From the NCBI GenBank assembly GCA_905250025.1, contig CAJNOJ010000319.1, forward strand, positions 48,964 to 82,657: a stretch of DNA of 33,694 nt, read 5' to 3'. Positions within the stretch are counted from its first letter, which is position 1, and the number at the start of each line of letters is the position of its first letter. Positions 343 through 25,898 of this stretch are shown here, in pieces. The position numbers were made by a program, and so were the translations under genes. Below the pieces are notes generated by a model. It had not been told where the DNA came from. It ran no database searches and saw only the letters and a list, made by a program, of their open reading frames with translations. This DNA comes from Adineta ricciae. Its lineage: Eukaryota.

Positions 343-1431
343 TTATGAATCTTGTTTCGTCTTCCATTCTTGTTTGCATTTTGCCAAGAGTTGATCTTTT
401 GTTGGTTTCGCACCATTGTTTTCTTTGAAAAGTACAACTAATATTCCAATATAAGCTTCTCCAAATGCTGTAGTAATGGATGTTGCAACAGCCGCATCAA
501 TTATACCACCGGCAACTGATCCAACGCCTGGAATAAACTTTAATAGCGATGCCAAACCGAGTCCAACAATAGATGCACCACTTGCTGTTGCAAAAATTCC
601 CCATAAAGCAAGAATAACACTTCGTTCGATCTCAAAACCAAAAACTGCTGTTATAGATATAATCATTCCTATTTCAATTGGTACAAGAACTGCCATATCA
701 GAGAATGGTATTGGTATAGCTCCGGCTGCTGCCGCAGCGATTGCTGATGCTCCGACAATTCCATGTGCCTTGAGGATTTTTGCACTGAAATCGGCATTTT
801 GAGCAGCAAGAAAAGCGATCTGTTGTGCTGCTGGGAGTAATTCCTGTGTCGTTTTCACGAGGCTTGGAAGTCCTGTTGACGGAATAGGTGGATATCCTTT
901 GCGTATACTCTTCTCCTTCGCAACAACAGGTATAACTTTAGGATCTTGAAATTTTTGTTGAATTATATTAAATAAAGTGTTGTCTTCATCGTAAGATTGT
1001 GTAATAACAATAACTACTGGAATATACTTGGAAATCATTTCCACAAAGGCAATTTCCCCTTCTTCCAGTCGATTCGACGTGTGTGAAATACACATCCAAG
1101 CTATGTGAATATGTTCATTTATATCCTTATTCTTTTGACACCGCTTTATAAACGAACAAACTTCTTCCATTATTTTTTTAAATTCTTTCATTTCAAGACC
1201 ACGTGAATCAAACAGTGTTACTGAAGTACCTGGTATCGCATATTTCTGTATATTCTTGGTAACTGGTGAACCTGTGCCAGTTGTGGCTACATCTTCTTTG
1301 AATACTGCATTGATCAGAGTACTTTTACCAACACCAGTACGACCAACAACTATTATATTTGTTCGACCTAACTGCTTGATTTCGGCGTCAATATTTCGAA
1401 GTAAACTTTCATCCGTTTGAAAACCTGCCAT
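343..1431 (-). CDS. P-loop GTPase fused to a Gly/Ala-rich DUF697-like membrane domain; single exon, bacterial-type architecture
   Basis: 362-aa intronless ORF. It has a Walker A/G1 motif GRTGVGKSTLINAV and a DxxG-like LFDSRGLE. The C-terminal half is Gly/Ala/Ile-rich with predicted membrane helices (AIAAAAAGAIPIPFSDMAVLVPIEIGMIISITAVFGFE ... GLGLASLLKFIPGVGSVAGGIIDAAVATSITTAFGEAY). This resembles DUF697 (YcjF-like) domains fused to MMR_HSR1-type GTPases in bacteria. The family assignment is from memory, not from a search. Confidence 0.55.
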   Translation of the reverse strand: MAGFQTDESLLRNIDAEIKQLGRTNIIVVGRTGVGKSTLINAVFKEDVATTGTGSPVTKNIQKYAIPGTSVTLFDSRGLEMKEFKKIMEEVCSFIKRCQKNKDINEHIHIAWMCISHTSNRLEEGEIAFVEMISKYIPVVIVITQSYDEDNTLFNIIQQKFQDPKVIPVVAKEKSIRKGYPPIPSTGLPSLVKTTQELLPAAQQIAFLAAQNADFSAKILKAHGIVGASAIAAAAAGAIPIPFSDMAVLVPIEIGMIISITAVFGFEIERSVILALWGIFATASGASIVGLGLASLLKFIPGVGSVAGGIIDAAVATSITTAFGEAYIGILVVLFKENNGAKPTKDQLLAKCKQEWKTKQDS

Positions 1432-2484
1432 TCTTATTGATTTGTAAACGACAAAAAAATCAACTATAAATGAATAACAGAAACTGTATTTAAAAAAAGA
1501 GAATTGTCATGTCAGTAAAAGTTATTTTATTGTCAACCAATGTAAAGAGTTTTTGCTAATTTCAGCTATTTATTTTTATGCATCATCGCTAAAAATCCGA
1601 TTTGCTGATGTTTTTCTCCCAATAGCGCAAAAGGCAAACCTCTACAGTTTAGTTATTCTTTCGAATAAAACGCAAATGCTCGAGCATTAATCATATTTGT
1701 CTTACGAATACTATAGTAGGGAACGCCACCTATAATCTAGAGCGTCGTAGAGAGTTATTGACGATATTATTGTGAATCAAATAGACATGTAATTTTAACT
1801 CTCTGTTAATTTTGAAAGTTTATTTAAAGTTATTTTTCTTTTTGTTTGAATTGCGGTTGATCAGTAATCGGAATTTTTCTCACAATCTTATGAAATTCTA
1901 TGAAATAAAGAGAAAGAGAAAAAAATCATGTAGTCGTAATGACTAAAAGTACATTGCTTTGTTTACAGGAACACTTTTAACGATTCTATCTTCTATTGAC
2001 CGTCAATATGTGAACAGATGAAATTTATTTTGTTTAATTTGATTATCTTTATAAGAATTATACTCCATGTACATTTCGAGTATTTCAGGCTTGTCAAAAA
2101 AAGCGATGCTAACATCGATAGATGAAAAGAAAAGAAGATGGACAGAGAGAAGGCACCAGCTCTTTCTGATTCGAATTGTTTGGTATACGAACAGAGATGC
2201 ATTAGAATAAATATCAGTTATATCAAACATATTAATGGCATTATTGAATTAAATAGATTTGTTTTTTTTTCATTCAATTATGAATTGATTGAAAGAAGAA
2301 ACATTTTTCAAAGAGAAAAAAAGAACACTTTTGTCTCGTTCTATTTTTGTTTTCTCTACTGCACGACCTGATGAAAACTGGAAAATTTTCAGTTGAGAGA
2401 AAAACTATATAAAAAAAGTATCACACTTAAGCTCTGTTTTACCATTGCTTCTCTATTTATTTGACATACTAATCAAGTGAAGGA

Positions 2485-4252
2485 ATGTCTTTGAATGCCA
2501 ATGATGAATTAGATCTTTCACATCCATGGTTGATTGAGTTGCATCCGGACGACAATCAGGAAGCGAATAATGCAGTGGGCAACGTTGTACAACAAGTTGA
2601 AAGAATGAAAATCATTGAATCGCATGAAAGTGCACATCTTGGGGTTTCGAAATCATGGATGGAACATGAAAAAGTGACAGGCGAAATCATCAATCAAGCA
2701 GCGAAACGAGCTGCAGCCGAAACTTTCGAAAACATTTGTGTCTATCACCCAACTCAAAACCACAAGTCGTCGCGAAATGGATCAGATATTAGACCTGATT
2801 TTGTTATTGCATGGAGCTGCGATGGTGCTCGAGAGAATACAGCTATTGTAGATGCTAAGGATCATCATGGACACGTTCCACGCAGTGAATACGACAAAAT
2901 TCGTCGGGATATGAAAGAGACTCAAGTAAGAAGTGTTATTTTATTATCCGATGATCTTTGAATATCTTGTTATAAATAATTTTCAGGCAACACGAGGTAT
3001 TCTTGTCCTTGGAAAACATGCATCCATCAGTGATAAACTACGTGATGATATCGAAAAAGATAACAAAGTTGATATTGTTCACGTCAGTGATAATCGAGAT
3101 GAGACAATTCGTCAAGTTTCACAATATATTGGGAAAATCGTTGATCCAAACTTCGTTCTCGATGATCAACGATGGAAAACATATGAGTCACATGTTAATA
3201 TAACTGAACATCAAAAAGAACGAAGACTCAATCGACATGGAGATAGTTCTCATTACACATCCGATAGTATTTATTATCGTTTCAATTATCCTAAGAAACA
3301 AGATGGTACAATCGATGAACGATACGCAGCCAATCAAGATAGAAATAGAGATGGAGGACCCGATATGCGTATGATACATAATAAAACACAACAAGCTCAA
3401 GAACAACATTTAAATCAAGATGGATCAAATGACATGCGTAATAAAGAACATCGTGAACAACTAATCGACGTTACTGGTCATCATACAAATACAGATGGAT
3501 CACTTGATATGCGTTTTAAAGAAAATAAAGAAGAATCATCACCCACTAGTCCGTCGATTGTTAACAACGAACAAAATACAGACAATGCCGATATGCGTTT
3601 GAAAGTGAATCGAGCAAATGTAGTTGATAGTGAAGGTCATCGTCAAAATATCGATGGTTCTCCAGATATGCGTTGTAAAGAAAATCAAGAAGGTAAATTA
3701 CTATTGGAAATACACATCATTATTTCATTCAAATAGTTTTTACACATTATTTAGACGCAAATCCATCGGAAGGATATAAGCAAATAAACACAGAAATTCC
3801 AACCAAAAACGATGGTACAGCCGATATGCGATATACGATAAGCAAAGAAGCAGTTGCTTCAGGTGTAATCACATCTGACGAAAATCTTGTCCAGACAAAT
3901 GAATCATCATCAGTGAATGGAAATGAAATAACTTCGCGTAGAAATTTCCACAACATTATTCTCATAACGTTATTTAATTTGAAATTTTTATTTTGTAGAA
4001 GAATCTTTTATGAATGATATTCCAACAAAAAGCGACGGTACAGCCGATATGAGATATTCAGCTAGTCAAGATGCAGTAGCCTCTGGAGATATTAGTCGTG
4101 ATCAAGTTCTAACTGAAGGTAATGAATTTTCATCATTAAATCTCTGCTTTGAATTTGAAATGTTTTTCTCTGTAGGAACGATGGGAGGTGCTGGTGATGG
4201 TCCTTTAAAAGCGGATGGTACACCAGATATGCGCTTTAGCGCTAATCAATAA
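2485..4252 (+). CDS. Multi-exon gene for a repeat protein with about 9 copies of a DG[TS]xDMR[FYCLM] motif; N-terminal region has a possible PD-(D/E)XK-like signature
   Basis: Exons inferred from GT/AG sites and frame continuity: 2485..2925, 2987..3692, 3755..3937 (donor uncertain), 3999..4118, 4176..4252 (stop TAA). Introns are 57-62 bp. Repeated peptide modules are DGTIDERY, GGPDMRM, DGSNDMRN, DGSLDMRF, DNADMRL, DGSPDMRC, DGTADMRYT, DGTADMRYSASQ and DGTPDMRFSANQ. The last three are also near-identical at nucleotide level (gatggtacagccgatatgcgatat vs gacggtacagccgatatgagatat). The N-terminal segment RPDFVIAW...TAIVDAKDHH resembles a PD...(D/E)xK nuclease core; that is inference only. Confidence 0.5.
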
Positions 4253-4585
4253 AAACAAGAGAAGAATAAATTCTAGAATTTCAATGTTTTATCCGCGATT
4301 GGTATTTTTAATCTGTACAATATCTTGTCGGAAAAACTTGATCAACAAAATAAAATTCATCATGATTCACCTCGATCATTATGAAAGAGAAGATTTGGCT
4401 CGTTCTGTTTAAAAGTTTACTCAGCCAGTCATTGACGAACAGATACTAATTTGAGCGTCCTTCCGAGATTTGATTGAAAAGTCTCAGTTATTTATTTACA
4501 CTGTGGCCTTTGATCCACCATAAGTAGCAAAAAACAAATTTCTATGTCAATATTTTCATCCGACGTGGAAAAACAACGTAGATGT

Positions 4586-6514
4586 TTAATCGCGTTGTAG
4601 AAATGTTTTGATATCAAAATAAATTAATCCGAAAACTGATTTAATCGTTCGAAAATGTTGAATAATTGGATAAATTCCAACAATAGAAAATGAAACAAAT
4701 AACCAAATGATTCCCAAACAAATCCAACAAGTAAAAAATGTTTCGGAAAAAATATACGATGATGCAAACATTGGCCATGGCCAAATGACAATGAAACAGA
4801 TTGTTATTCCAATTGCTAAAAAACAAATGGATCGTGAATTGTCTTTTAAATAAATAATTGCACGTTCAATTTCAACAATTGTTGAATTATTTGTATTTAC
4901 TAAATCATCTTCAATTAAAGCAATTCTTCTCATTGATACAAAATCATAAGGATTTTCATTTGGTTTAATCAAATTCAATAAAGGAATAAATAAACAAGGA
5001 CTTAATAATGCAACAAGATTTCCAATGAGCATTGATAAATTTGATCCCGTTGTTTGAATATTAATTTTTTCAAAGAAATATTTTGTTGTTAATAACCAAG
5101 AAACAATTGAACATATTAAACCCAATAATGGTGAAAGACAAACAGCTAATTTGTTTTGTTTAGTCGATAAAAGTGTGAGTATAACTGGTACAACAGCACT
5201 TGATATGAGAATTCCCATTAATGTATATAAATAACCCATACTGATTGAACTATAATATAAACCAATAGATAAAATAATCATTATTAAGACAAAAATCAAT
5301 AAAGATAAATGTGAAATAAAAAATAATCGTTTTTTCGATGCATTTGGATGAAAATAAGTTCGATAAATATCAAATGTGATTATTGAAGTAACAGCAATGA
5401 ATTGTGAAGACATTGCACTCGTACATGCTAAATAGATCAAAATAAAACTTAATAAACTTCCAGTTTTTCCAAGTAAAACAATTGCAGCTGAAGGTAATGT
5501 TAAACCAGATGTTATTTCATCTACATTTAATCGATTTGGATATGTTGGAAATAAAGGATTTGTTTGAAGTGTTATAGCAACAATACCCATAGTTGTACCA
5601 GTTACAAATGGTATTGCAAACCATGCTAAACCAGCAAGAATATATGCACGTACAATCGATTTTGAAGAAGCAGCAATGACTTTATTATAATATCCATTAT
5701 CAAGAAAAACTGTTCCAAAATTTCCAACAAGATTTATTAAATAAAACATTAAACCATTTCGAGAATTGAGTGTTAAGTAAGAACCTTGAAAATTTCCATC
5801 AACTGGATGATTTAAACTTTCATTAACAAGTAAAGTATAAATTTGAGAAAATGAACCCAATAAAGATGATGTTCGATATGTTACAAAAGTAAAAATGAAT
5901 ATGATGACAACAATAATGACATTATGAATATAATTTGTTAAAAATGTTGCTTTTAATCCTCCAAATATTGTATAAATTATTGTTCCCAATGGTAATAAAA
6001 AACATATTGCAATAATATTCATTCCACATAATGAATGAATAACAGCCGAACCACCTGTTAATAACATTGATGTAACAAGAATATTTGTAAATAAGAAGAA
6101 TAGAATAAATATCCAATGTCCTTCTCGACCATATCGTGCACGAATGATTTCTAAATATGTATGAGCAAATGGTGCTCGATGTTTAAATTCAATTGCAATA
6201 ATTGAAAATAAAATAATTTGAATTGTTGCACCATTTGCGTACCAAAATGCACCGGATATTCCATAGAGATAAGTAACTGAAGTTGATTGTAAAAGTGTAG
6301 CAGCCCATGTCCATGATGAAACAATTGATGATGATAATAAACCTGATCGAATCTTTCGATTTGCTGTTAAATATGTTTCACTTGACATTTGATTTTCACC
6401 ATTGAATCTTTGTAAAAGAAGTGTTATTCCAATCATCATAGAACTAAATAATAATCCAAAACCAATTAATATTATATAACCATCGATTTGTGTTAAGAAT
6501 GATGTTGTAAACAT
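4586..6514 (-). CDS. DUR3: Urea active transporter DUR3 (sodium:solute symporter family); single exon
   Basis: 642-aa intronless ORF with about 14 predicted TM segments. Long stretches closely resemble fungal/plant DUR3: AHTYLEIIRARYG, FTNILVTSMLLTGGSAV, FLLPLGTIIYTIFGGLKATFLTNYIH, HPVDGNFQGSYLTL, LINLVGNFGTVFLDNGYYNK. DUR3 is not a typical metazoan gene family. Confidence 0.88.
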   Translation of the reverse strand: MFTTSFLTQIDGYIILIGFGLLFSSMMIGITLLLQRFNGENQMSSETYLTANRKIRSGLLSSSIVSSWTWAATLLQSTSVTYLYGISGAFWYANGATIQIILFSIIAIEFKHRAPFAHTYLEIIRARYGREGHWIFILFFLFTNILVTSMLLTGGSAVIHSLCGMNIIAICFLLPLGTIIYTIFGGLKATFLTNYIHNVIIVVIIFIFTFVTYRTSSLLGSFSQIYTLLVNESLNHPVDGNFQGSYLTLNSRNGLMFYLINLVGNFGTVFLDNGYYNKVIAASSKSIVRAYILAGLAWFAIPFVTGTTMGIVAITLQTNPLFPTYPNRLNVDEITSGLTLPSAAIVLLGKTGSLLSFILIYLACTSAMSSQFIAVTSIITFDIYRTYFHPNASKKRLFFISHLSLLIFVLIMIILSIGLYYSSISMGYLYTLMGILISSAVVPVILTLLSTKQNKLAVCLSPLLGLICSIVSWLLTTKYFFEKINIQTTGSNLSMLIGNLVALLSPCLFIPLLNLIKPNENPYDFVSMRRIALIEDDLVNTNNSTIVEIERAIIYLKDNSRSICFLAIGITICFIVIWPWPMFASSYIFSETFFTCWICLGIIWLFVSFSIVGIYPIIQHFRTIKSVFGLIYFDIKTFLQRD

Positions 6515-7287: not shown

Positions 7288-7884
7288 TTAACCGGAATGA
7301 ATCTTTTTATTTGTATGATCTCTTGCAGCAATTGCTAAGAAATAAAATTCATCAGGAATTTTATTTGATAAAACTTGTAAATCATATTTATTTTTCCAAA
7401 ACAATGATGAAATTCTTTTATGAAATTTTGCTAAAATTTCTTTATTTGATTGATCAATAAAAGTTGTATTTAATGACGCTGCTTTTCCTTCCATTGTTAA
7501 ATCAATTGAATTATAATTTAAAGTGAATTTATTTCCAACAATTTTATAATTTTGATTGATTGTTCCATTTTTCCATTGATTTAGATTTTTATTAAGAATC
7601 GCAATGGTTCCTTTGTATAAAACAACACTAATCTTTGCTTTTAATAAACCAATAGGATTTTTTTTTGTTAAACCTTGAAATAATTTCACATTATGTGTCG
7701 CACCGAATTTCGATTCCATTCGAAATAAAGCATTTTTACCTTGGGTATCATAAATTGTAAATTCTCCACCTTTCAAACCACTAATTAAATCTTTTTTGAT
7801 TAAATAAGTTCGGTTTACTGCATGAGAATATTCATTACAGAGAAAGAAAAGAAACAAAACCAAAATTGTACTTGTTTGAGACAT
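7288..7884 (-). CDS. Secreted LURP-one-related (LOR/DUF567, tubby-C-like) family protein; single exon
   Basis: 198-aa ORF with an N-terminal signal peptide (MSQTSTILVLFLFFLCNEYSHA). FTIYDTQGKNALFRMESKFGATHNVKLF matches the LOR motif F-V-TD-x-G-x-LF-V...H-D-x-VLL. The C-terminal ILAKFHKR...DLQVL...DEFYFLAIAARD matches the LOR C-terminal conserved block. The family is mostly plant/fungal/bacterial. Confidence 0.45.
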   Translation of the reverse strand: MSQTSTILVLFLFFLCNEYSHAVNRTYLIKKDLISGLKGGEFTIYDTQGKNALFRMESKFGATHNVKLFQGLTKKNPIGLLKAKISVVLYKGTIAILNKNLNQWKNGTINQNYKIVGNKFTLNYNSIDLTMEGKAASLNTTFIDQSNKEILAKFHKRISSLFWKNKYDLQVLSNKIPDEFYFLAIAARDHTNKKIHSG

Positions 7885-8067
7885 TTTATTTCGTGAAAAT
7901 GAATTTCGTTCGTAAATGGATATTTCATTAACTTTTTTTCTTCTCTTTTCTTATCTAATTTTATCAAACACACAAAAAAAAAGAAAATCTCGGTTAGAAT
8001 TTCCCAATTAAATTTTGTTATTTGATCTTTCGATCAACCTTGATTTGTCATCGAACAAAATGTTCTA

Positions 8068-8462
8068 TTAAATGGCTAAACCATAAACTGATACAACCGC
8101 GTACATCGATTCATTTTCCCAACTAAAATTCAAATGAAGAAGAAACTTCTCGTAAGAAAAAAGCAAATGTTTTACTGAAATGTTGATGAACAATCTTGAT
8201 CAAAATCCCAAAAACATGAACTTGTTGTATGAAGAGCTGAATGATTCTTTTGCATAATAACACAATAAACAATGTATTTATAATGATGATTTAATTTAAC
8301 AATTGAATCTAAAATAATTTCAACAATATTTGATGTCCATTGATTCATTTGATTTGCTTGATAAGATTGATAACCGATAGTTAATTCAATTGTTTCACTA
8401 ATAATCTTTTGGATTTCTTTATCATCATATTTTTCATAATCGAATTCATTCATTCTTTCCAT
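8068..8462 (-). CDS. Tctex-1 family dynein light chain, 2 exons (8176..8462 and 8068..8122; 53-bp intron)
   Basis: Exon 1 ends ...YKYIVYCVIMQKNHSALHTTSSCFWDFDQDCSSTF, then a CA|GTAAAA donor in phase 2. The acceptor ttttag|TTGGGAAAATGAATCG gives HWENESMYAVVSVYGLAI*. This reconstitutes the canonical Tctex C-terminus (SSCFWD...WEN..MY..VS.FGL.I) in a protein of about 113 aa. Confidence 0.8.
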
Positions 8463-9422: not shown

Positions 9423-10679
9423 ATGAAATCGAAAAATTTGTTTTATTATTTGGCAATTACAATTGGAACATCATCATTATTATATCGATCATTTCAATTG
9501 ATTAAAAAGAAATTTTTCTTGAAAAGAAAAGTTTATTTAAATGGTTTATCATGTTCATTTCCATTGAATTGTTATTCTCAAGATGAAATGAAAGAAATGT
9601 TTATTGAAAATTATTGTGGCGGAAAAGAAAATCTTCTGGAAAAAGATTTTGATTTTATTCAACGAGTTTTTCAAGCTTCATGTATTGACACATCTTATGT
9701 GAATTTATCAAAAAATAATTTATTCAAACGAATGAAAAGAGAAGAATATACAAATTATGTTAAACAAACTTTAATTGAAATTTCATGTAAATCAGCGAAA
9801 AATGCCATTGAAAATTGTCTTCATTTAAATTCCAATGAAATTACTCATATTATTTTTGGAACAATGACAGGAACAATTGCAGCACCATCAATGGATATTC
9901 ATCTTGTTAAAGAACTTCAATTAAATTCAAATATAAAACGTTTAAATGTTGAATCAATGGGTTGTTTAACTGGTTTTCGATTAATTGGTTTATGTAATGA
10001 TATTGCATTACAAGATGAAAATAATATTGTTTTATTAATTGTTTCTGATATTCGTTCAGCTTTGGGAAATCAATTAACGCCATTTGAATCCAATCAACCA
10101 ATTGATAAATCCAATGTGATTATTTCTGCACTTTTTCGTGATTCATCTGGTGCAGCGATATTTTCTCAAAAAGCAATTTTCTCCAACGAACTTTCCTATT
10201 GTCACATTTTAAAACATCAATCAACAATTATTCCAGATACAATTGAATTGGGTCGTTTAAAAGAATTCAATGATTCAAGTATTCATCTTTATTTAGATAA
10301 ACAATTGCCTTATGCTGTTTTTGATGCTCTTCCAAATTTTGTTTCGAAATTATTAAATGAATATCAAATTGATATTTATCATTGTCAATTTGCTGTTCAT
10401 ACGGGTGGACCAAAAATTATTCGTGGAATAAAAGAATGTTTAAATTTAGATGATGAACAATTATGTTCATCATGGTATGTAATGACACATTATGGAAATC
10501 TTAGTGGATCAAGTAATCTCGTTGTTTTGGAACATTTTTGTCGATGGAAATATTCGGAAAATAAACCAAATGAAAAAGGAATTTGTTTTCCCAAAGATTT
10601 CAATCGATATAAATATATTGTTGGACTTTCATTTGGACCGGGAATTGCTGTTGAAGGTGTTTTATTCCAATTAGAATGA
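9423..10679 (+). CDS. Type III polyketide synthase (chalcone/stilbene synthase superfamily); single exon with a hydrophobic N-terminal extension
   Basis: 418-aa intronless ORF. The Cys-His-Asn catalytic triad motifs are all present: ESMGCLTGFRLIGL (active-site Cys in the GCxxG context), AVHTGGPKIIRGI (His in the H-x-GG context) and THYGNLSGSSNLVVLEH (Asn in the GN-x-SS context). GLSFGPGIAVEGVLFQ is the conserved C-terminal GFGPG loop. The N-terminal about 30 aa (LFYYLAITIGTSSLLY) look like a membrane anchor. Confidence 0.85.
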   Translation: MKSKNLFYYLAITIGTSSLLYRSFQLIKKKFFLKRKVYLNGLSCSFPLNCYSQDEMKEMFIENYCGGKENLLEKDFDFIQRVFQASCIDTSYVNLSKNNLFKRMKREEYTNYVKQTLIEISCKSAKNAIENCLHLNSNEITHIIFGTMTGTIAAPSMDIHLVKELQLNSNIKRLNVESMGCLTGFRLIGLCNDIALQDENNIVLLIVSDIRSALGNQLTPFESNQPIDKSNVIISALFRDSSGAAIFSQKAIFSNELSYCHILKHQSTIIPDTIELGRLKEFNDSSIHLYLDKQLPYAVFDALPNFVSKLLNEYQIDIYHCQFAVHTGGPKIIRGIKECLNLDDEQLCSSWYVMTHYGNLSGSSNLVVLEHFCRWKYSENKPNEKGICFPKDFNRYKYIVGLSFGPGIAVEGVLFQLE

Positions 10680-12975: not shown

Positions 12976-15900
12976 ATGGTTCATAAAAGTTTTCAAATGA
13001 AACAAGCAGATATTTCCACTTTATCATCACCATTGAATGGTAAAATAATTGTACTCGAACTTGGTTATGAAATCAGTTTGAAAAGTAAACAAGAATTAAT
13101 GAAATATTTACGAGAAAAACAAGCACGTATTTCATATATATTGACATCCAGTGTATGCTCACATTGAGTTTTCTATTGATCATATATTTAAAATTGATTT
13201 CTTTAGACTGATTATGTTTTATCTACAAATAATGTCGATACTTACAAAATACGTCGTGCTAAACAACTTGGTTTACCAATAGTTGATGTTGAATATATAT
13301 GGAGATGTCGTTCTTTGTCATCTGATCAAAAACAAATTGATATTAATCAATTTATTATCAAATCAACGGAAGATCAAGAAAATTTTAGAAAAACGGGCAC
13401 TATTTCCGTGAGAAATATTTGTAATTCGTGTTCGATAGGAAGATCTCGAACGAATTTAACTCAAATGAAATTGTGGAATTCTGATGAAGTCGGTTTACCT
13501 CGTTTTGATGAATTAACTCATTGTGAAATTGGTAAATGGGCCATTTTTAAAGTAAATTTTCTATTTTATGATTTTCATAAATTTTTTCTTTTGTAAATAA
13601 TAGGAAACTAATGAAACTTTCGATGTATTTTTTGTTCTTGAACTTCAAGTTATTCCTGAACAATACTACGATCAAACAACAAGTGATTATCGATTAAGAT
13701 TTCGATATGAAAAACGTATTATTGATCAAACAGTGTTAATACAATATGCATTTAGTAATGATTCAAATGAACAACAACAATTATTTGCATCATATTATGA
13801 TCGAATAGCTAAAATGCCACGTATAACACGAATTCGTGAAATATTACATAATCAATTAGGATCAAAATTATTATTACGTGTAAATAAATAGGATTTAGAG
13901 AAAAAAGAAGAAAAGGAAAAATCAATTTGTATTTTTAGTCATTATTTACTCATTGTATTGATACACAAATACTCGATGCAAATGTGTGTCAATTAATCGA
14001 ATCACTTTGGTTGGAATCAATTGGTGATTTAAATCAAATTCTAAGTATAAAACCTGAATCATTTACTCTTAAAACGGTATTTACAAATATATTTATATGA
14101 ATTTATCAATTGAAATTATTAAATAGATTATTGAAGCTGAAGCTGCATTACTTGAACTCAAATTGACCAATGATCCTGCTGTTGCAGATCGTTTTTATTC
14201 ATTAATACCCCATCGATCACAGTATCATATTGATCTTATTAAGAATCGTCGAATATTGATTGAAAAACTCGACTTGTGTCAAGTAAAATTGTTTTTTTAA
14301 ATTTCTTCTCTTTTCTTTCTCAATTCTCTTATTCAGATGCTTCGAGATATGTTAACAGTCAATGAACTAACTAATTGGAATGTAAAAGCATCAATTGAAG
14401 CAAAATATCGAGCATTGAAATGTCATATTGAAACAATGTCAAATTCAACATCGGAATTTAAGAATATTGTGAATCTCATTCAATCATCCAGAAATAGGTG
14501 AGAAAATTGTACATAAAACAATTTTCTTCTTATTTATATAATTATAGTAATGAACAAATTGTTATTCATAATGTATTCAATGTCGTTAAACAGACAGATA
14601 CTCTCAATTTTTGTACAAAATTATCCAATCAACAACAACTTTTTCACGGATCAAAATATTCAAATTTCCTCGGAATTCTTTCACGGTAAAATATTCGTTT
14701 TATTCTTTAGAAAAGATTTTAATATTCCGATGATTATATGTATAAAGAGGTTTATCTATGCCAAAAATGGTAGTTGAAGAATTAGGTGTTGATCGCACTG
14801 ATATTGGTTGTCTTGGACATGGAATTTACTTTTCTAATTCTGTTTCAACATCTTTAAAATATACAACAGCAAGTACAGTACGATCAGGTCGTCGTTTATT
14901 ATGTATTTGTCAAGTGGCACTTGGTGAATCAGCTGATTATTATTCATATTCACCAACACTCATCAAACCTCCTGATGGTTTTCATAGTACACATGGAATT
15001 AAACAAACTGAAGATAATCATTCAATATTTAATGTAAGTTTCAATGAAAAATGAGAATCAATCTGAGAATATTTTCTAAATATTGTGATATGTAGGATGA
15101 TGAATATGTAATTTATCAAGTTGATCAACAACGTTTACTCTACATTGTAGAAGTTTCATGGATATTAAAAAATGAAATTAATATTGAATTAGAACGATTA
15201 TCAATTATTCATGATGAACAAAATCTATTTAAAACAAATGAAATTCCTACGATATTAATCGATGATGATAAAATTACTGAAATAGCTGAACAAGATTATG
15301 GTTTAATATGTTCATCATCAAGACAACTTGTTCCACTTAAATCATTTCATATTCGTGCTCAAATTATCGATACTACAGTTGAAGTAATTCGATCGATTTT
15401 TCTATTGAATTCATTTCTCATATATTTCTATTTGATTTCAAAAACAAAAGGTTGTTCTCTATCAAGTTTATCAAAATCCAAGTTCAATTCCAATTGAAGC
15501 CAAATATGTATTTCCTCTTGATGAAAATTCAATTGTTTGTGGTTTTGAAGCACATATCAATAATCAAATTATCAAAGGTATTGTTAAAGAAAAACAACAA
15601 GCGAAACAAGAATATAAACAAGCTATTGAAAAAGGTCATGGTGCTTATTTAATGCATCAAGAAGAAGCACAAGTATTTAGTGTTGCTGTTGGGAATTTAC
15701 CAGGTCATAATGAAGTTATTATTAAAATAACTTATGTTGCACAATTAGACATTGAAAATGGTGATATTATTTTTCGTTTTCCTGCTAAAATGGCTTCATG
15801 GCAATCGAAAAAAGCGATCGAAAACAAAGATCAATCAATTTTACGATCGATTAGTATTATCGATGAAAAAGTTCAATTTAGTTTGAAAGCATCAATTCGA

Positions 15901-17601
15901 ATGCCATATGAAATATCGAAATTATTTTCACCAACACATCGTCTTCGTCGAAAATTAACTGATTGTACAGCTATGATTGAACTTGTTGATAAGATTTTAT
16001 TTGATCAAGATTTTATTCTTTCAATAACACTTAAGAATCCTAATTTACCTCGAATATCAAATGAAACATCGAATAACGATGATTCTCAAGTATCGATGCT
16101 CACATTTTATCCACAATTTCAAACATTAATGAATTCAAACGAACAAATTGAAATTATTTTCATTGTTGATGTGTCAAATTCAATGGATGACAGTCAGACA
16201 CAACAAGCTAAACAATTAATTCATTTGTTTCTTATGAATTTGAAAGTTGATGATGAAAAAACATATTTTAATGTCATTTTTTTTGGATCAGGTAAGAAAA
16301 GACAATTGTCAAGTGTTATTTTATTATTTAAATTATCAATATTCATTTAGATAATGATGAATGTTTTCCTATTTCAATGTCAACAAAGAAAGAAAATCTG
16401 GATAAAGCCAAATATTTTGTTCTTGTGAGGATAATTTCTCTCTTTTTAATCAAATTTTCGTCTATTGAAATTTTAGCATTCACCTGTTCATCGTGGGAGT
16501 ACAAATCTATTTGCTGTTTTTCATCGTTATTCATTATTACCATCAACATTATCATCGAATTTCGGTCGTCAATTTATTTTATTATCTGATGGACATATTC
16601 ACGATCTTAATTCGATTCTTATTTTACTTAAACATCACCCAACTATGCAACATGATCGTTTATTTACATGTTCAATTGGTAATATCGCAAATAAACATAA
16701 TTTAAAACAATTGACTAATGAAGCAAATGGAGGTGGTTTATTCACAATATTTGATTCAAATTATCGATCAAAATGGAAAATAAAAGTATTGAATATTCTC
16801 GATAAGATTCACCAACCATGTATTACAAATATATCAATTGATTGGCATGGTTGTTTCAATAAAGAACAAAAGTTTCATATACAAGCACCAAAAAGAATTC
16901 GATCTTTGTTTAATGGAATGCGACTTACTGTTTATCGATTCATAGAAAATTGTCATAAGGCAACATTAACAGCTATTGTAAATGGACAAGAATTTGTTAC
17001 AACTGTATTTAGTAGTTCAATGACAACTAACAAAGGAAATATTTTACATTGTTTAACTACACGAGCGATCATTGATGATTATGATAATGGTCTATGGAAT
17101 GTCGATGAAAGTGAAAATGAATTAATTAAAATTCAATATAAACGAGATCTTATTGACCTTAGTATTAAACATTCTGTTATTAGTCCATACACTAGTTTTG
17201 TTGCCATTGAAGAACGTAATATTCAAATCGATCAAAATCATTCATCTTCGATTAGAAATGTTCGTTTACTTGATATTATGCTTGAACGAGATGAGGATTT
17301 ATTACCCTATATGAGTTGGGATGGTGATGTATCAAATTTGACTTTAATCAAACAAAACTTAGCCGATGCACGTCTTTTACTTCAATGTGCATCGTTTCAG
17401 AGTAAAAAGGAAACAATTGCTGATATTGAAAAACTTTGCCAAAAAATTTCGTATCGAACAGGTGGAGATGAAAAATTCAATGCAATGATGACGATCATAC
17501 GTACATATCGTTATTCATTGAGTGAATACGATCAAGCAGATGAAATTGAAGAGAAAATGCGACATGGTATCTCATTTGATTTATTAATAATATATATTTA
17601 A
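12976..17601 (+). CDS. Vault poly(ADP-ribose) polymerase (PARP4/vPARP)-like multi-exon gene: BRCT, PARP catalytic, VIT and vWA domains
   Basis: There are many short introns. A BRCT-like start runs about 12976-13330 (LNGKIIVLELGYEIS...IRRAKQLGLPIVDVEYIWRC). The PARP catalytic exons run about 14100-15130, with the H-Y-E triad in LFHGSKYSNFLGILS, GIYFSNSVSTSLKY and DDEYVIYQVDQQRLLYIVEV. The VIT domain runs about 15440-15980 (VVLYQVYQNPSSIPIEAKYVFPLDENSIVCGFEAHINNQIIKGIVKEKQQAKQEYKQAIEKGHGAYLMHQEEAQVFSVAVGNLP). The vWA exons run about 16140-16900 (IIFIVDVSNSMDD...). The TAA stop is at 17599-17601. A possible extra 51-bp intron (17567..17617) plus the exon 17618..17718 could extend the C-terminus by about 33 aa. 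Individual exon boundaries were not all resolved. Confidence 0.75.
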
Positions 17602-17883
17602 TCGAAAAAATCAATAGATATTATCATCGAAATGATTAATGCAACAGAAGAAGAACGACAAATATTGGAACAACAATGTTTCGCGAATAATTTAATAATC
17701 TCAAGCGATCAATTGTAAATCAAAGACAAATCTTTTTCGGAAAAAAAAATCAATATTCGTTTGTCTTTTAGTAAATTATTGGCTGAACATAATTCCACAG
17801 ACTTTTCAATTGCGAATAATACTAAAATAAGTGTACGTGAGTGAAACTGTAAGACGAAGAATTCTTCTATAGAAATACTCTAG

Positions 17884-18391
17884 GCTGATCAATTGACTGA
17901 AGAACAAATAGCTGAATTTAAAGAAGCGTTTTTTCTATTTGATAAACATGGTGATGGTACAATTACAATAAAACAATTAGGTACCGTAATGCGTAGTCTT
18001 GGTCATAATCCAACTGAAATTGAATTACAAGATATGATCAATGAAGTTGCTGCTGATGGTACGATTTTAATCAATCAAATTTGATTTGCTTCATTTGTTT
18101 TTGTATTGTCAGGTAATGGTACAATTGATTTTCCTGAATTTTTAACAATGATGGCACGTAAAATGAAAGATACTGATTCAGAAGAAGAAATTCGCGAAGC
18201 ATTCAGTGTTTTTGATAAGAATGGTGATGGAATTATATCAGTTGACGAATTTCGGTAACGAAAGAAAGGCAAATGTGCAAATTTATTTATTCTGTTTCTT
18301 TCTTTTTAAAGTCATGTTATGACAAATTTGGGTGAAAAACTCACCGATGAAGAACTTGATGAAATAATTCGTGAAGCAGATGTTAATGGAG
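17884..18391 (+). CDS. Calmodulin-derived EF-hand exons (3 exons: 17884..18058, 18113..18254, 18312..18391); the initiator-ATG exon is unresolved
   Basis: The translation is [133 protein letters not shown]. This is very similar to calmodulin. The introns sit where calmodulin introns are expected, including a first exon that would contribute only the ATG. The Ca-binding loops EF1 (position 12 is Q), EF2 (position 1 is A) and EF4 are non-canonical. Confidence 0.7.
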
Positions 18392-18461
18392 GTATAGACC
18401 TTTTTTTTGTAACCAAAACCCACTGAAATGAATGTTAAAACATGTTATGTTGTGATTTGAG

Positions 18462-19337
18462 GTGTCGATTTGATGGCGTTATTTGGTTCGTATAACCATG
18501 CAACTGATAAATCTGTATCGACTCCCGATAAGTCAAAATCATACGAACGATCTGAGAACATAGAAATATCTCCAAAAATCTTATCATTTGATGGTGAGAG
18601 AGAGGAAAATCTGCAATTTTCTGCAAATGAATCGAAAACTTCATTTTCAGCCAGTTCAGTATGTACATTTTCCATGGAACTTTTTTAAATAAAAATGTTA
18701 TTAACTTTTAGAGAGAACATAATGAGGATGACTTAATAACATTAGCGTCTAAAAGTGTTGAATCAAAATTCAATGTTTGTCCACTTAGTCTTGGAATAGA
18801 AGATATTTATGGTAATATGCATACACTTATTCATCGTAATACAACGATTCCAGTACAAACACAGTTTCATCAAATATTCACAAATGCTTATGCGTATCAA
18901 ACATCAGTTAATATTCGTATATTTGAAGGTGAACATAAACTTACAAAATACAATGTATGTAGTATTGGAACTTCAGAAACTTTTTGAATACAATCGTCCT
19001 CTATATTATAGATGTTTTTGGATGAATTTAGTCTTTCTGGTTTAACAAATAATTTGTTTGATCAAACACTTAAAATAGGCGTTCGTATGAATATTGATGT
19101 CAATGGAATACTTCGTGTTGATGCTGAAGAAGCTTGTTCAGGAGCAAAAGCATCATTTATTCTTTCTTCTGATAAGCCAAGTTCGAGAATTACTTTATAT
19201 GTTCCATATTATCATTGAATGTCATTTATATTTCTATAGGAATGAGCAAAGAAGATATTGAAAAACATATGACATTTGTAGAAAGTTATACAAATTCTAT
19301 AGTTGATGATGATAAATCCAATGATTCATTATATCCG
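18462..19337 (+). CDS. Linker exon plus Hsp70 substrate-binding-domain (SBD)-like exons, phase-compatible with the upstream calmodulin-like exons (18462..18658, 18712..18954, 19012..19180, 19240..19337)
   Basis: REHNEDDLITLASKSVESKFNVCPLSLGIEDIYGNMHTLIHRNTTIPVQTQ...IRIFEGEHKLTKYN matches the Hsp70 SBD-beta block (PLSLGIE...RNTTIP...Q..F.T...VYEGER..TKDN). ...NIDVNGILRVDAEE matches the Hsp70 block DIDANGIL.VSA. ...GMSKEDIEKHM matches the Hsp70 block GRLSKEDIERMV. No Hsp70 ATPase domain is encoded upstream. Confidence 0.55.
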
Positions 19338-19403
19338 GTTTGCATTAGTTTATTTATCTTTATATAAAGTTTAACATTTCACTTTGTTTTTATCTTTTCT
19401 CAG

Positions 19404-20178
19404 CTTGATGGTCAAATTACAAATATAACACATACTTTTTCTGACAAATTGGACACTTCATTCGGTAATTTATTCTTATTTACTATTTTATTGTAATGAT
19501 ATATAAATTTAGATCAAAAAGTTAACGTAACATTTCTTCGAAAAATGAAAGACATTCAATCAACAACAACAATCATTGAACAATTGCTAAAACTTCAATC
19601 TGAAGTAGAAATTTCATAAAATATATTTCTTACTTTCTATTTTATTCGAATCTATAGGATGGTTCATTTAGATTGAATTCCAATTTAGCTGATGTGTTTC
19701 GTATTGATCCTAATAGTTTAAATCATATTGAAATCTATTTAAATAAACAAGGTTTTAATTTACTTGGTAAGATCCAATGATTTTGTTTTTCACCAATATG
19801 AAATTTTTCCTATTCTAAGCTTTGAATATACAAAATGAAATTTATCATTTAATTGGTACGGGTATCGTTCTTCTTTGGTTTATACTTCAACTACCATCTC
19901 TACATCAGTATACAAACCAATTTTTATCCAACATCGAACAAATCGAAGTGAATGAGATTCTTTTTCGAACTATTTATTTTATATTCGAACTGTTTTGTCT
20001 TTAAATCTTTAAGATTGATCTTTGCAACTTTTTTCCTGATAACATAATTGAACATATTAACAAAGCGATTGAATTCTACCGACAAACAAGTCAACGTGAT
20101 GATATTTATTGTAAACAATTGGGATTGGATGATTCATCATGGAATATATTTATTCAACGTATATTTATCGGACTTTGA
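19404..20178 (+). CDS. vPARP/PARP4 C-terminal (MVP-interaction-region-like) tail exons (19404..19464, 19513..19604, 19658..19766, 19820..19947, 20014..20178; stop TGA)
   Basis: KMKDIQSTTTIIEQLLKLQSE|DGSFRLNSNLADVFRIDPNSLNHIEIYLNKQGFNLLG|ALNIQNEIYHLIGTGIVLLWFILQL...|IDLCNFFPDNIIEHINKAIEFYRQTSQRDDIYCKQLGLDDSSWNIFIQRIFIGL* aligns by eye with the extreme C-terminus of vertebrate PARP4 (LLSLQTEDGFWKLTPELG...SFLKQKGIQSLGVKGRECLLDLIATMLVLQFIRTRL...NIPWAFEAIKQASEWV...ICPRLELGNDWDSATKQLLGL). All splice phases are continuous with the Hsp70-SBD-like exons upstream. Confidence 0.6.
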
Positions 20179-20647: not shown

Positions 20648-21418
20648 ATGAAACAATTCTTTATGGTATTTTTAATTATCATGTTGAATATAAAGAAGAA
20701 TGAATTGAAATGTCTTCAAGCTTGGAATGGAAGTGGAACAGGTGCATGGTATCGTGTAGATACAATTTGTAATTCTTCATTTATCTCAACAGAACTCGTC
20801 AATTGTTTACCAACGATTATTTTACCTTCAAATTTAACAGCGTTTAGTGATGGATTTTATATCAGTTTAGGAGTTTTCAATCGTTTCAATGGAGTTTCGC
20901 TTGATATTGGTTTAACATTCGATTTGGGGAAAAATCGTTGGTTTTCTTACGGAAATGATCGACTGGGATGGAAGTCCGGAAGTATTTCAATTGATTCCAA
21001 TGAAAATCGTTGTATTAATGTTTCTTTAAGTATTTTTAACGATTATATTCATTATATTATTCGAAACTCGAATGGTTCAATTGTTTTAGGTGAAGATAAA
21101 TTTTATTCATTTCAAATTGATCCTCTATTGAATTTAACAAAAAATAATTCTGATTCATTTGGATTTTATCGTTTTGATAGTATTGCTCAAAGTAAAGAAA
21201 CATTGAAAAGTGGTTCTCAACTTATTCATGCGCAAATGTTCAATTGGACGCTAAAGTTTTCTTCAGGAGAAATTCTTCCAGCTAATGAATATAATATTGC
21301 TAAGAATATTAGTGGTTATTCACCAGGTATATGTTGTTCTAATCAAGAAATAAAAACGATTGAAATTCATCAACAAATCAAATGGAATCAATCGGATATA
21401 TCGATTCGATATATTTAA
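20648..21418 (+). CDS. Intronless secreted, heavily N-glycosylated protein of unknown function
   Basis: 256-aa ORF with N-terminal hydrophobic signal MKQFFMVFLIIMLNI, at least 10 N-x-S/T sequons and a C-terminal CC pair. It has no recognisable domain. The coding potential is judged from ORF length in an AT-rich background, where stops are frequent. Confidence 0.4.
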   Translation: MKQFFMVFLIIMLNIKKNELKCLQAWNGSGTGAWYRVDTICNSSFISTELVNCLPTIILPSNLTAFSDGFYISLGVFNRFNGVSLDIGLTFDLGKNRWFSYGNDRLGWKSGSISIDSNENRCINVSLSIFNDYIHYIIRNSNGSIVLGEDKFYSFQIDPLLNLTKNNSDSFGFYRFDSIAQSKETLKSGSQLIHAQMFNWTLKFSSGEILPANEYNIAKNISGYSPGICCSNQEIKTIEIHQQIKWNQSDISIRYI

Positions 21419-21522
21419 TAATCCAAATACTTCGAATTTCTAAATTTTATGAAATTATTTTATTTTCAATATTTTAATTCAATGACAGAATTACAATATT
21501 TAGATTTTCGAATAAAATGTTG

Positions 21523-23190
21523 TCAATATAATTCACTTGTATTCAGAGAAGCATTTCCATTTGATCCACTTGCAACTAATATCGTTCCATCAAGTAAAAG
21601 TGATGCGGTATGAGAATGTCGTATCGTACTCATATTCGATAGTATTGTCCAATTATTTGTTGATGGATCGTATAATTCAGCACTGTTGAGATAAACATTA
21701 TTTTTACTTTGTCCACCTGTTACTAAAATTGTTCCATTCAATAAAACAGTCGCTGTATGAAAGTATCGCGCAGTTGTCATACTCGATGTTGTTATCCAAC
21801 TATTTGTTGAAGGATTATATAATTCAGCACTGTTCAAAGAACTACTGCTACCGTAACCGCCTGTAACTAACACTTTTCCATTCTGTAGGAGAGATGCGGT
21901 ATGAGAATATCGTGCAACAGTCATGTTCGCCACTGTTGTCCAATTTCCCGTAGATGAATTATATAATTCAGCACTATACAGAGGTGCATTATTACTATAT
22001 CCACCTGCAACTAAGACTGTTCCGTTCAGTAAAACTGATGCAGAATGTCTGAATCTTGCAGCATTCATATTTCCTGTAGTTGACCAAGTGTTTATTGATG
22101 GATCATACAATTCAGCACTGTTCACATAACCACTATTAGCAGAACCACCTGCAACTAACACTTTTCCGTTTTGTAAGAGAGATGCTGTGTGATAATATCG
22201 TGTGATGCTCATATTTCTGGTTGTTGTCCAATTACCTGTAGATAGATTGAATAATTCTACGCTATTCAGAGAAGTAACACTATTTTGTCCACCTGTTACC
22301 ATTACTATCCCAGATAATAAGAGAGACGAAGTGTGATAAGATCGAGTAGTTCTCATGTTCCCTGTTATTGACCATGTATTAGTAGATGGATCATACAGTT
22401 CAGCACTGTTAAGAAAAGCGCTATCACTCTGTCCACCTACAACTAATACTGATCCGTTCGATAAAACTGATGCAGTATGTTTGTTTCGGGCAATATTCAA
22501 ATTTTTCATCGTTGTCCATCCTAAAGAACCAAAAAGTAAAAATCAGGTAAATTTACTCAATTAAAACTGTCAAATGTCGAAAGATAAATCGAAGTATTTC
22601 AATTGCTAGAAGATATTTTTCATTTATAAGAGAGTTCGTTATGCATCGATAACTATATAACATCAACATACTATTTATCTATTTTCTGAGGATTTTTCAA
22701 AAAAAAACGAACGACAAGTAATGAAAGAATTATTTCAATTTTGCCTTACCTTTCGGTGACGCAGTTGTTGTGGATGTTGATTCTATAATTTCAGAGAATA
22801 TCATAGAGAAAAACGAAGATTTCTTTGCTGTTATTTTGCTTTCTCGAAGTCTCGTCAAAATTCACTAAACTTACCATGTGTTATTATTGTTATAACGATC
22901 GATGTTCGATTAAGAAATACCATTGTAACATTCGAATAGGATTCAATTGTCAATGAATTATTATTTAAATTGAACAATTGGCACGTTTCATTTGAATGAA
23001 AATAATTGATAAGAGATACTGAATTGTTATTTAAATTGATCATTTGACAAATACATTCATCAAGTGTTCTATTGAAAAAGATCCGCGTTTCAGTACCAAT
23101 ATATGTGTAATCATATACTGTCCCAATGGCGATCGTATGAATTGTAGGTATGTAGAACAGAATCAGACTAAGAAAAATCACGTCTGTCAT
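21523..23190 (-). CDS. Secreted Kelch-repeat beta-propeller protein, 3 exons (22875..23190, 22750..22782, 21523..22520)
   Basis: Exon 1 holds a signal peptide (MTDVIFLSLILFYIPTIHTIAIG) plus a Cys/N-glycan-rich module, donor CATG|GTAAGT. A 33-nt Thr-rich exon (ESTSTTTASPK) follows. The last exon holds about 7 Kelch blades with the motif R-x-x-HTASLL-x-NG-x-VLV-x-GG...LNSAELY-x-PST-x-W. Phases are 1-1 and consistent. Confidence 0.7.
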
Positions 23191-23961
23191 TTTACGAGTG
23201 TTTCTGGAGGAAATTTCAACTGATTTATATAGGAGATTTTTTTCCTATGCAACAGTCTCATCTAATTATTTTCAAGTTAGGAGAGAGAAAGTCAGACAAA
23301 AGAAAACAAGGACATCAGCATCTTTTGATGAGTTATTGTCAGACAAAAATGCTATGAACTTATATTGTTACACATGAAATGCAATTGTCTTTGTCTACCG
23401 TCATTGTGATTAACGAATATTTGTTTATAGAATTTTTACCAAACGCGTTACAGAACCTCGATATTCATAATTTTCATGCGATTGAGTGCATATAATTAAT
23501 ACAATGCAAGCCTTTCCTTGATGAGAGTGCAAATGTTGGAAGAAAAGAAAAGAAAAGAAAACGTTGACATCAATAAGAAATATAATTTATCAAAAAGAAG
23601 CAATTGATATCTTGTTCGATTTGAGAATTAAGTTTTTTCTAAAAGACTTTTATTAGCACCAACAGAGAAATATTTGTTTAGTTTTTTTTCTCCATTGTAA
23701 TAATCAAAGTCCACGTTATGAAACCAAAGATAAAGAAGAAAATAATGCATTATCAGAACAATTGATAAGAAACAAATGAGTAACTTTACTTATTTTACCT
23801 CGTCATTTTGAAAATAGAAGATCAGAAATGAAAACACATTCATCTTCAATAAATAGTTTGAATAAAAACGGAATTCCAGTAAATTAATAAGAAATCTTCT
23901 GTTAAACTGAACTTTTCTCTTTTTTTTTTCAAAGATAAGTGTTATATCATCAGGATCACCT

Positions 23962-25898
23962 ATGAATGTCAATGATGAAACATCTGTTAATGATGTTCAA
24001 TTCAATCAAAATTCCTCTCAGGTAAGAATCTTTTATTTTGTTTTCCTTATGACAAGTGAGTTTTCGTTTAGAGAAGCTTTCTTAAGAAATTAATTCCAAA
24101 TTTTTTGCGAAAAAATTCGTCATCTGACGATGCTGACAATCCATATGCAAATGAATATGCTGATACTCAAGTTTTAGTTCAAGGAGAAAAAGTTGATTTA
24201 CATCGAAATTTACAAGAACGACATATGATCATGATTGCATTAGGTGGAACCATTGGAACGGGATTATTTTTAGCGTCTGGACAAGCTTTAGCATCGGCTG
24301 GACCTGGTGGCTCTTTAGTATCTTATTTAATCATTTCTGTTATGGTTTATTTCGTTATGACAAGTTTAGGTAAAATTATTTGATATCTTAGATGAAAAAG
24401 ACTTTTATGGTTTTTTTTAAAGCTGAATTAGCAACACAATATCCGATAAGTGGTTCCTTCAATACATTTGGAAGTCGATTTGTTGATGAAGCTTTTGGAT
24501 TTGCATTAGCATACAATTATTATTTTTCTTGGGTAACAACGATCGCAGGTGAATTAGTTGCTGCTGGTCTCATTGTTCAATATTGGTTGCCACACTTTCC
24601 CTCAATTGTTTGGTCAATCCTGGGAATGTTAGTTATGTTTTTATTAAATGCATTTACAGTGAAAGGTTATGGTGAAGCTGAATATTGGTTTGCAATGATT
24701 AAGGTCATAACTGTACTCGTATTTCTACTTGTTGGTGTTCTTGTTGATTCGGGTGCTATTGGAAAACCAAGAGAAACAATTGGTTTTAAGAATTGGAAAA
24801 TTGAAGGTGCACCTTTTGTTGGAGGAGTTGCTGGTGTTATTACAACATCGATTATATCTGGTTTTGCTTTTCAAGTACGAAGAATTTCGTTTTTTTCTCG
24901 AATATAATCTCTCAGCGAATATATAGGGAACAGAAGCAGTTGGAATTGCAGCTGGTGAAAGTTCCAATCCAAAAAAAGATGTTCCACGTGCAATGAATGG
25001 AACAATTTGGCGTATTATTTTATTTTTTGTTGGTGCTATTTTTATTATGGGTTTAATTATTCCATATAATGATAAAAAACTAAGTCAAATTAATGGTGTT
25101 GATAGTATCGCTGTTTCCCCATTTACATTAGTATTTAGTCTATCGGGTATTCCAGGAGCTGATCATATTATGAATGTTGTTATTTTAACAACAATCTTAT
25201 CAGCTGGTAATTCAGGTCTTTATTTATGTACAAGAATATTTTGGACTTTAGCAAATGAAGGCAAAGCACCGAAAATCTTTCGTCGTTTAACAAAAGGTGG
25301 AATACCAATTTATTGTTTAATTTTAACAACTGTTTTAGCAACTTCTTTGTTTGGTTTATCATTTGTTGGAAATCAAGTTATTTATATTTGGTTAGTTAAT
25401 ATGACGAGTGTTATGGGTTTCATTGCTTGGTTTGGAATCGCTATTGCACATTGGAGATTTCGTCGAGCGTTTCTCGCACAAGGTTATTCATTGAATGATT
25501 TGGTTTATAAAGCGTTATTCTTTCCTGTTGGACCATTTTTAGCATCGCTACTTATTTTACTTTGTGTTTTTGGACAAGGTTATTCAGCATTTACACAAAA
25601 AACCTTCAATTGTACTCAGTTACATGAAGAAGAAACCTATCTTTTTGAATTCAATAATCAATATTTAATCGATAGCGGAAATTCAACGACGTGTACAAAA
25701 ACAGTCTTTAATGTTCAAACATTTTTATCTGGTTATGTGATCTTACCAATCCTTGTTATTATGTTTTTCGTTTATAAATATGTTAAGAAAACGAAATTTA
25801 TTCCACTTAAAGATATTGATTTACTTACTGATAGTGTTATGGAACGTGATCGTTTGAAACGAGAAAGAATACAACAATTACAACAAACAGACGCTTAA
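23962..25898 (+). CDS. Amino-acid permease of the fungal/bacterial AAT (GAP1/LysP-like, PF00324) type, 4 exons (23962..24021, about 24072..24369, 24423..24874, 24927..25898)
   Basis: Signature ERHMIMIALGGTIGTGLFLASGQAL. Other conserved blocks are ELATQYPISGSFNTFGSRFVD, FAFQ|GTEAVGIAAGESSNPKKDVPRAMNGTIWRIILFFVG and NAGNSGLYLCTRIFWTLANEGKAPKIF. There are 12 predicted TM segments. Short introns have GTAAGA, GTAAAA and GTACGA donors. Confidence 0.8.

Follow-up and report, generated by a model that had tools for sequence, protein, structure and literature searches.

Foreign-type genes interleaved with animal genes in a chromosomal segment of Adineta ricciae, a bdelloid rotifer

How do genes from families that are normally bacterial, fungal or plant come to stand, mostly without introns, among intron-bearing animal genes? 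The question is raised by a stretch of 33,694 nucleotides from Adineta ricciae (GenBank assembly GCA_905250025.1, contig CAJNOJ010000319.1, positions 48,964 to 82,657 of the forward strand), here called the window, whose own numbering is used throughout. An original prediction, made from the letters of the sequence, had described it as a region rich in horizontal gene transfer (HGT), with six such genes within about 25 kb of a genome like that of a bdelloid rotifer. The guess about the genome was right, since the five single-exon open reading frames (ORFs) claimed as foreign, together with a further ORF of 256 aa at 20648–21418, match annotated A. ricciae proteins exactly; among the single-exon ORFs tested, that of a Kelch exon alone had no exact A. 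ricciae protein match. The matching proteins are encoded on a contig of 110,872 bp and once more in a second assembly. The window is a gene-dense, ordinary chromosomal segment of A. ricciae in which foreign-type genes lie among animal genes. Judged by their nearest relatives, at least five of its genes very probably have a non-animal ancestry, drawn from at least four donor lineages, and these are interleaved with the animal genes Tctex-1, vPARP, Kelch, PHM (peptidylglycine alpha-hydroxylating monooxygenase) and Hint. The six genes under study are the following.

343..1431, minus strand: GTPase with a DUF697-like membrane domain, 362 aa, single exon, bacterial type (Pfam, homologues)
4586..6514, minus strand: DUR3-type urea/solute symporter, 642 aa, single exon, ascomycete-like (SSF)
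7288..7884, minus strand: marginally LOR-like protein, 198 aa, single exon (sub-threshold match of an orthologue)
9423..10679, plus strand: type III polyketide synthase (PKS), 418 aa, single exon, hydrophobic N-terminus (Chal_sti_synt N and C)
10837..12084, minus strand: class-A flavoprotein monooxygenase (FMO), 415 aa, single exon, PhzS-like (PRK07538)
23828..25898, plus strand: LysP-type amino-acid permease, 619 aa, five exons (AA_permease, splice model)

The mosaic described in the original prediction is confirmed, with clear non-metazoan affinity for five of the six genes. The first five are uninterrupted ORFs at the boundaries first proposed for them, as the count of five single-exon genes among six had implied, whereas the permease starts at 23828 and not at 23962. 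The family assignments hold for the GTPase, DUR3, PKS, FMO and permease; that of the LOR-like gene is weak.

The GTPase matches MMR_HSR1 in Pfam (E 2.6e-11), and its DUF697 match of 23.7 bits lies below the cut-off of 27.7. It aligns end to end with bacterial proteins annotated at source as 'DUF697 family/EngB', and its full-length homologues, with 34–42% identity, span many phyla of bacteria; they occur in Robertkochia, Xanthomonas, Myxococcus xanthus, Nodosilinea and Pseudomonas, and in numerous Bacillota and Actinomycetota. An orthologue in A. vaga is 79% identical.

The product of 4586–6514 is, by domain content and full-length similarity, a DUR3-type urea transporter with predicted transport activity (SSF E 1.4e-19 in Pfam; TIGR00813 215.7 bits, above the cut-off of 184). 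Among its best 120 matches (at least 644 bits), an A. steineri protein (59% identity) is followed by named proteins that are all urea active transporters/Dur3 of Ascomycota, with 45–52% identity. In published work, an HGT candidate is scored by whether its best non-metazoan match exceeds its best non-rotifer metazoan match by at least 30 bits (PMC5916493). For DUR3, this alien-index-style margin is at least 63 bits (707 vs. <644), no animal outside the rotifers being present in the best 120. The 110.9-kb A. ricciae contig also encodes further, nearly identical copies of both proteins, a GTPase of 377 aa and a DUR3 of 493 aa, which suggests that the two genes were duplicated in tandem as a pair.

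The PKS carries both chalcone/stilbene synthase domains (Chal_sti_synt N and C, Pfam E 1e-14 and 3e-16), and Cys181, His326 and Asn359 are invariant in an alignment across 16 homologues, so that it reads as a type III polyketide synthase with an intact Cys-His-Asn triad and predicted activity. Its only named relatives are Plasmodiophora brassicae (the nearest, 40% identity), diatom proteins and one archaeal metagenome-assembled genome. Another close match lies on a contig that is taken to be eukaryotic because it carries F-box and WD40 fragments, and homologues with 64–69% identity occur in low-GC metagenome contigs. The relatives in the PDB are chalcone synthase-like enzymes and Steely1; plant, Dictyostelium and bacterial enzymes score far lower. 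A non-metazoan origin for the PKS therefore stands, but the clade points to protist-like microbial eukaryotes rather than to the bacterial, fungal or plant sources first proposed. A hydrophobic N-terminal segment (window 9423–9500) precedes the catalytic domain in the rotifer PKS and in most of its protist-like relatives, suggesting a membrane-anchored clade of type III PKSs.

The FMO is classed by its motifs and profile matches as a PhzS-like class-A flavoprotein monooxygenase. It matches FAD_binding_3 in Pfam, scores 409.4 bits against PRK07538 in NCBIfam (cut-off 400), aligns with the PhzS structures 2rgj and 3c96 (E 2e-61) and contains in translation the flavin motifs IIGGGISGL, GADGINS and GDAAHP (GxGxxG, DG and GD). 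Its relatives are an A. steineri protein (63% identity), environmental sequences (46–50%) and alphaproteobacterial flavin-dependent oxidoreductases (about 36%). In the A. steineri homologue (L084:9629-10682), the alignment runs through two frames and the annotation gives two short genes; a frameshift and decay are possible. For the PKS, FMO and GTPase alike, no named match comes from a non-rotifer animal, many matches being without a taxon name.

The permease matches AA_permease in Pfam with E 4e-123. Its best NCBIfam family is PRK10836 (LysP) with 558.8 bits, below the cut-off of 735, and the yeast-type TIGR00913 gives 433 bits; by these scores it resembles the LysP type, yet falls outside the strict curated PRK10836 subfamily. 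Four introns at 23879–23934, 24022–24071, 24370–24422 and 24875–24926 (56, 50, 53 and 52 nt) give a spliced model that reproduces the annotated protein of 619 aa with 100% identity. Orthologues are present in A. vaga (85% identity), A. steineri (78%) and several Rotaria species (58–78%), and the nearest outsiders, with 43–53% identity, belong to Kickxellomycotina, Zoopagomycota and Mucoromycota fungi and to Bacillota. No animal besides rotifers is among the best 120 matches, from which the alien-index-style margin is at least 114 bits (629 vs. <515). The intron after residue 145 has the same position in a relative (74% identity) on L013, a metagenome contig of 26.9 kb (ERZ781398 NODE-1078) that is syntenic with the window and probably comes from another bdelloid because of its GC content of 31.5% and its short introns. 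The suggestion that the permease is an older, domesticated acquisition fits both these orthologues and the common intron position.

A comparison of codon usage and third-position GC content (GC3), as proposed with the original prediction, places the candidates with their neighbours. GC3 is 0.11–0.24 in the foreign-type genes vs. 0.16–0.22 in the intron-containing ones, and the relative synonymous codon usage (RSCU) of the candidates correlates with that of the intron-containing neighbours at 0.86–0.96. By the physical-linkage criterion of PMC5916493, the candidates are linked to host genes, being interleaved with Tctex-1, vPARP, PHM and Hint. A second assembly has an identical gene order over window 3427–31418, where the called genes map at 99.96–99.99% identity; it breaks inside the gene at 2485–4252, between positions 3054 and 3427 of the window. 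Upstream of the window, it contains a DUF4419 gene and a Glyco_transf_90 gene (L002:4895-11830).

Nearest relatives, host-like composition and interleaving in two assemblies all support a horizontal origin of five genes. The transfers are old, because the genes have taken on the host's base composition and codon use, homologues occur in other bdelloids (for all six named genes) and the permease has host-type introns. The donors would be bacterial for the GTPase-DUF697 gene, ascomycete-like for DUR3, protist-like for the type III PKS, bacterial-type for the PhzS-like FMO and either early-diverging fungi or Bacillota for the permease. Each foreign gene would work independently as a transporter or an enzyme, and their clustering would reflect the known tendency of bdelloid foreign genes to gather, not the acquisition of one functional module.

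In A. ricciae, 12.5% of genes are HGT candidates, 20.9% are single-exon genes and the median intron is 55 bp; about 80% of the 'clan' HGT candidates are common to four bdelloids (PMC5916493). Against these genome-wide rates, the window has 5–6 foreign-type genes among about 15 (binomial P = 0.007–0.03) and five single-exon genes out of five (P = 4e-4). The local enrichment in foreign genes is real but modest, and in line with local clustering.

The remaining features of the window are as follows.

2485..4252, plus strand: gene with repeated 'DGSxDMR' motifs, not among the claimed genes (ORFs 2485–2961 and 2933–3736; called gene end 4252)
8068..8462, minus strand: Tctex-1 dynein light chain, one 53-nt intron at 8123–8175 (Tctex-1 E 2e-26)
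12997..20178, plus strand: vPARP-like gene, 1921 aa, with PARP, VIT, VWA and EF-hand (called gene and Pfam)
20648..21418, plus strand: 256-aa single-exon gene, no Pfam match (exact protein match)
21523..23190, minus strand: Kelch-repeat gene (Kelch_1 E 2.6e-65)
26392..27831, minus strand: PHM-like gene, 316 aa (Cu2_monooxygen and Cu2_monoox_C)
28155..30075, minus strand: intron-containing 336-aa gene, no Pfam match (called gene)
30474..30798, no strand: inverted repeat (foldback), 129 nt, 98% complementary, 67-nt spacer
32350..32496, plus strand: remnant of a piggyBac-type transposase, C-terminal zinc finger (PF13842 zf-Tnp_2, E 1.8e-6)
33124..33693, plus strand: Hint-module exon of a hedgehog-like gene, running off the window (PF01079 Hint, E 4e-29)

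The animal genes had been described as carrying many short introns. Under a minimal-intron model this is true of vPARP, which needs at least 20 and whose exon ORF includes VIT and VWA, and of PHM, which needs at least 5. However, it overstates the case for Tctex-1, whose unique splice solution has exactly one intron, and for the Kelch gene, where six repeats (144-nt units) fill one 987-nt exon with about 2 introns 5′ of it. The gene at 2485–4252 has an internal direct repeat and no Pfam match. The 256-aa gene, a seventh single-exon gene that the original prediction did not mention, has a hydrophobic N-terminus and one A. ricciae paralogue. Downstream of the 336-aa gene, the foldback resembles a miniature inverted-repeat transposable element. 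The zf-Tnp_2 match scores 28.8 bits against a cut-off of 24, and an out-of-frame piece upstream of it (32071–32346) holds the motif 'GRPS...RL..RHF'. No telomeric (TGTGGG)n repeat occurs within the window.

Several points weigh against a foreign origin as drawn above. The donor assignments rest on best matches, not on phylogenetic trees, and many of the top matches are environmental sequences without a taxon name. The alien-index-style margins of the permease and DUR3 are lower bounds taken from best-120 lists. The permease introns may have arrived with a fungal donor gene instead of being gained in the host, and the LOR-like protein lacks a detectable non-rotifer relative.

This last point bears on the strongest alternative, to which we give somewhat less than an even chance: vertical inheritance in rotifers, or an origin specific to their lineage, would account for some of the six genes and in particular for the LOR-like one. 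The LOR-like protein of 7288–7884 has no Pfam match with E up to 10, nor has its A. vaga homologue (61% identity), which is the only match among the best 150 of an exhaustive search; no relative was found in the PDB by sequence or profile search, or in a scan of bacterial and archaeal genomes. The orthologue on L013 reaches 19.9 bits against PF04525, below the gathering score of 24.5. An AlphaFold model built from a two-sequence alignment has a pLDDT of 34 and is unusable, and the N-terminus is hydrophobic and resembles a signal peptide. The proposal of a foreign LOR/DUF567 gene is thus not borne out: the protein is barely LOR-like, and the relatives found in these searches are all rotifer ones. 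On the other side, PF04525 is listed for this gene in a precomputed record, contrary to our own Pfam scans, and LOR proteins occur mainly in plants, fungi and bacteria. The other five genes have a strong non-metazoan affinity, which weighs against the vertical explanation.

A second alternative holds that the PKS and FMO, possibly with the LOR-like gene upstream, form a small acquired biosynthetic cassette in which a phenolic lipid or pyrone would be made and then hydroxylated by the flavoenzyme. The two genes are convergent (tail-to-tail), with 157 bp between their stop codons, and both seem catalytically intact. In bacterial alkylresorcinol/alkylquinone operons of the srsABC type, a type III PKS is accompanied by a flavin hydroxylase, and the cassette would mirror their logic. 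Diatoms encode proteins in which a type III PKS is fused to FAD_binding_3, and a single sequencing run, SRR23617210, supplies the non-rotifer homologues closest to the PKS (49% identity) and to the FMO (47%), which lie on the Logan contigs L004 and L007 (short, single-exon, GC 44%, GC3 42%). In addition, the adjacency of the LOR-like gene and PKS recurs in the environmental contigs L011–L013. However, the window FMO shares only 23–27% identity with the monooxygenase portion of the diatom fusion proteins, with about 58 bits (BLASTP) vs. 211 bits (phmmer) for PhzS. A Rosetta-stone link, drawn from a concatenated PKS-FMO query that found the diatom fusions, was accordingly rejected as non-specific, the window FMO being far closer to PhzS. 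The PKS on L013 has no FMO within 8 kb, L004 holds its PKS homologue without an adjoining FMO, and the FMO homologue of A. steineri is flanked by genes for an alcohol dehydrogenase and a P450, with no PKS within 10 kb. The PKS-FMO adjacency is absent in L004–L006, L008–L013 and A. steineri. A biosynthetic gene cluster is recognised by the co-localisation of core and tailoring genes across related genomes, and no such conservation is observed here. The cassette is therefore an improbable reading of the pair.

A related idea keeps the PKS at its centre without requiring the FMO. On L013, the LOR-like gene (72% identity) lies directly upstream of the PKS (64%), and the permease (74%) about 6 kb further. 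The genes at L013:2011-9170, directly upstream of that PKS, are, besides the LOR-like gene, a DAHP synthase, a chorismate synthase with a single short intron, a chorismate mutase II protein and a short-chain reductase; these five and the PKS look like a cluster of precursor supply plus PKS. It is conceivable, though we consider it unlikely, that bdelloids carry a conserved foreign neighbourhood built on a PKS of protist ancestry (LOR-like gene, PKS and LysP-type permease), to which different lineages add different partners. The partner may then be the PhzS-like hydroxylase in A. ricciae, and the shikimate-type enzymes and short-chain reductase in the organism of L013.

The original prediction also hinted that DUR3 and the amino-acid permease form an acquired nitrogen-scavenging module, which is highly doubtful. 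Both would import nitrogen compounds, and both are foreign-type genes of one window. However, their nearest relatives differ (Ascomycota for DUR3 vs. early-diverging fungi or Bacillota for the permease), as does their spread, the permease being present in Adineta and Rotaria and DUR3 only in Adineta among the matches listed. Seven unrelated genes and a distance of 17 kb separate the two, and L013 keeps the permease near the PKS without DUR3, so that the hint is left unsupported.

The original prediction had named a mis-joined contaminant contig as fatal to its reading. Contamination, whether by such a mis-join or otherwise, has practically no chance of being the source of the intronless genes. 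In its favour, the families are those usually seen in microbes, and introns are missing from five of the genes. However, their GC3 is like that of the neighbouring animal genes, foreign-type and intron-bearing genes alternate at a spacing of a few hundred bp, the second assembly has the same order, and the genomes of A. vaga, A. steineri and Rotaria have annotated homologues. Composition, interleaving and the second assembly together rule contamination out.

Old transfers of at least five genes into an ordinary rotifer chromosome thus remain the preferred reading, and such a mosaic is a pattern already documented for bdelloid genomes, HGT in A. ricciae having been catalogued before. HGT into bdelloids, including A. 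ricciae, has been extensively described (PMC5916493, PMC3499245, PMC11258130). The window agrees with the catalogued candidates of A. ricciae, A. vaga and Rotaria in that work with respect to species, non-metazoan best matches, linkage and host-like composition, and in that the candidates are mostly ancient, common to bdelloids and in some cases intron-bearing. There is no difference in kind; about 35–40% of the genes in the window are foreign-type vs. 12.5% genome-wide, and the particular genes of the window are not singled out in the bdelloid HGT papers cited.

The PKS invites three further comparisons. Like the nonribosomal peptide synthetase (NRPS)/PKS clusters that bdelloids induce upon attack by a fungal pathogen (PMC11258130), it is a foreign secondary-metabolism gene in Adineta. 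However, those clusters are large, modular, bacterial-type type I PKS/NRPS genes, whereas the window encodes a small protist-like type III enzyme. The main text of PMC11258130 is silent on type III PKSs, and a supplement to it includes an A. vaga gene whose annotation gives naringenin-chalcone synthase activity. The srsABC-type operons share with the window a type III PKS adjoining a class-A flavin monooxygenase; in the rotifer, the pair has different nearest relatives, its adjacency is not kept in other bdelloids and a methyltransferase is missing. Finally, HGT of a type III PKS has been reported in the ctenophore Mnemiopsis leidyi (PMC6005172), likewise a member of the chalcone-synthase family that an animal genome carries but that arose outside animals; for that gene a bacterial origin was inferred, whereas the rotifer PKS belongs to a protist-like clade.

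For the biology of A. ricciae as a whole, the window adds little because HGT in this species has been quantified genome-wide. The bdelloid signature of ameliorated, mostly intronless foreign genes among intron-rich animal genes is nevertheless recognisable from raw sequence, and is here confirmed gene by gene. The lead that emerges is a protist-like type III PKS, catalytically intact by its residues, with conserved neighbours across bdelloids. If the genes of this neighbourhood act together, they would make the rotifer an animal that produces aromatic or phenolic polyketides through a mini-pathway that was acquired, is still evolving and differs from the NRPS/type I PKS clusters, and the PKS could thereby extend acquired secondary metabolism in bdelloids beyond the modular NRPS/PKS genes.

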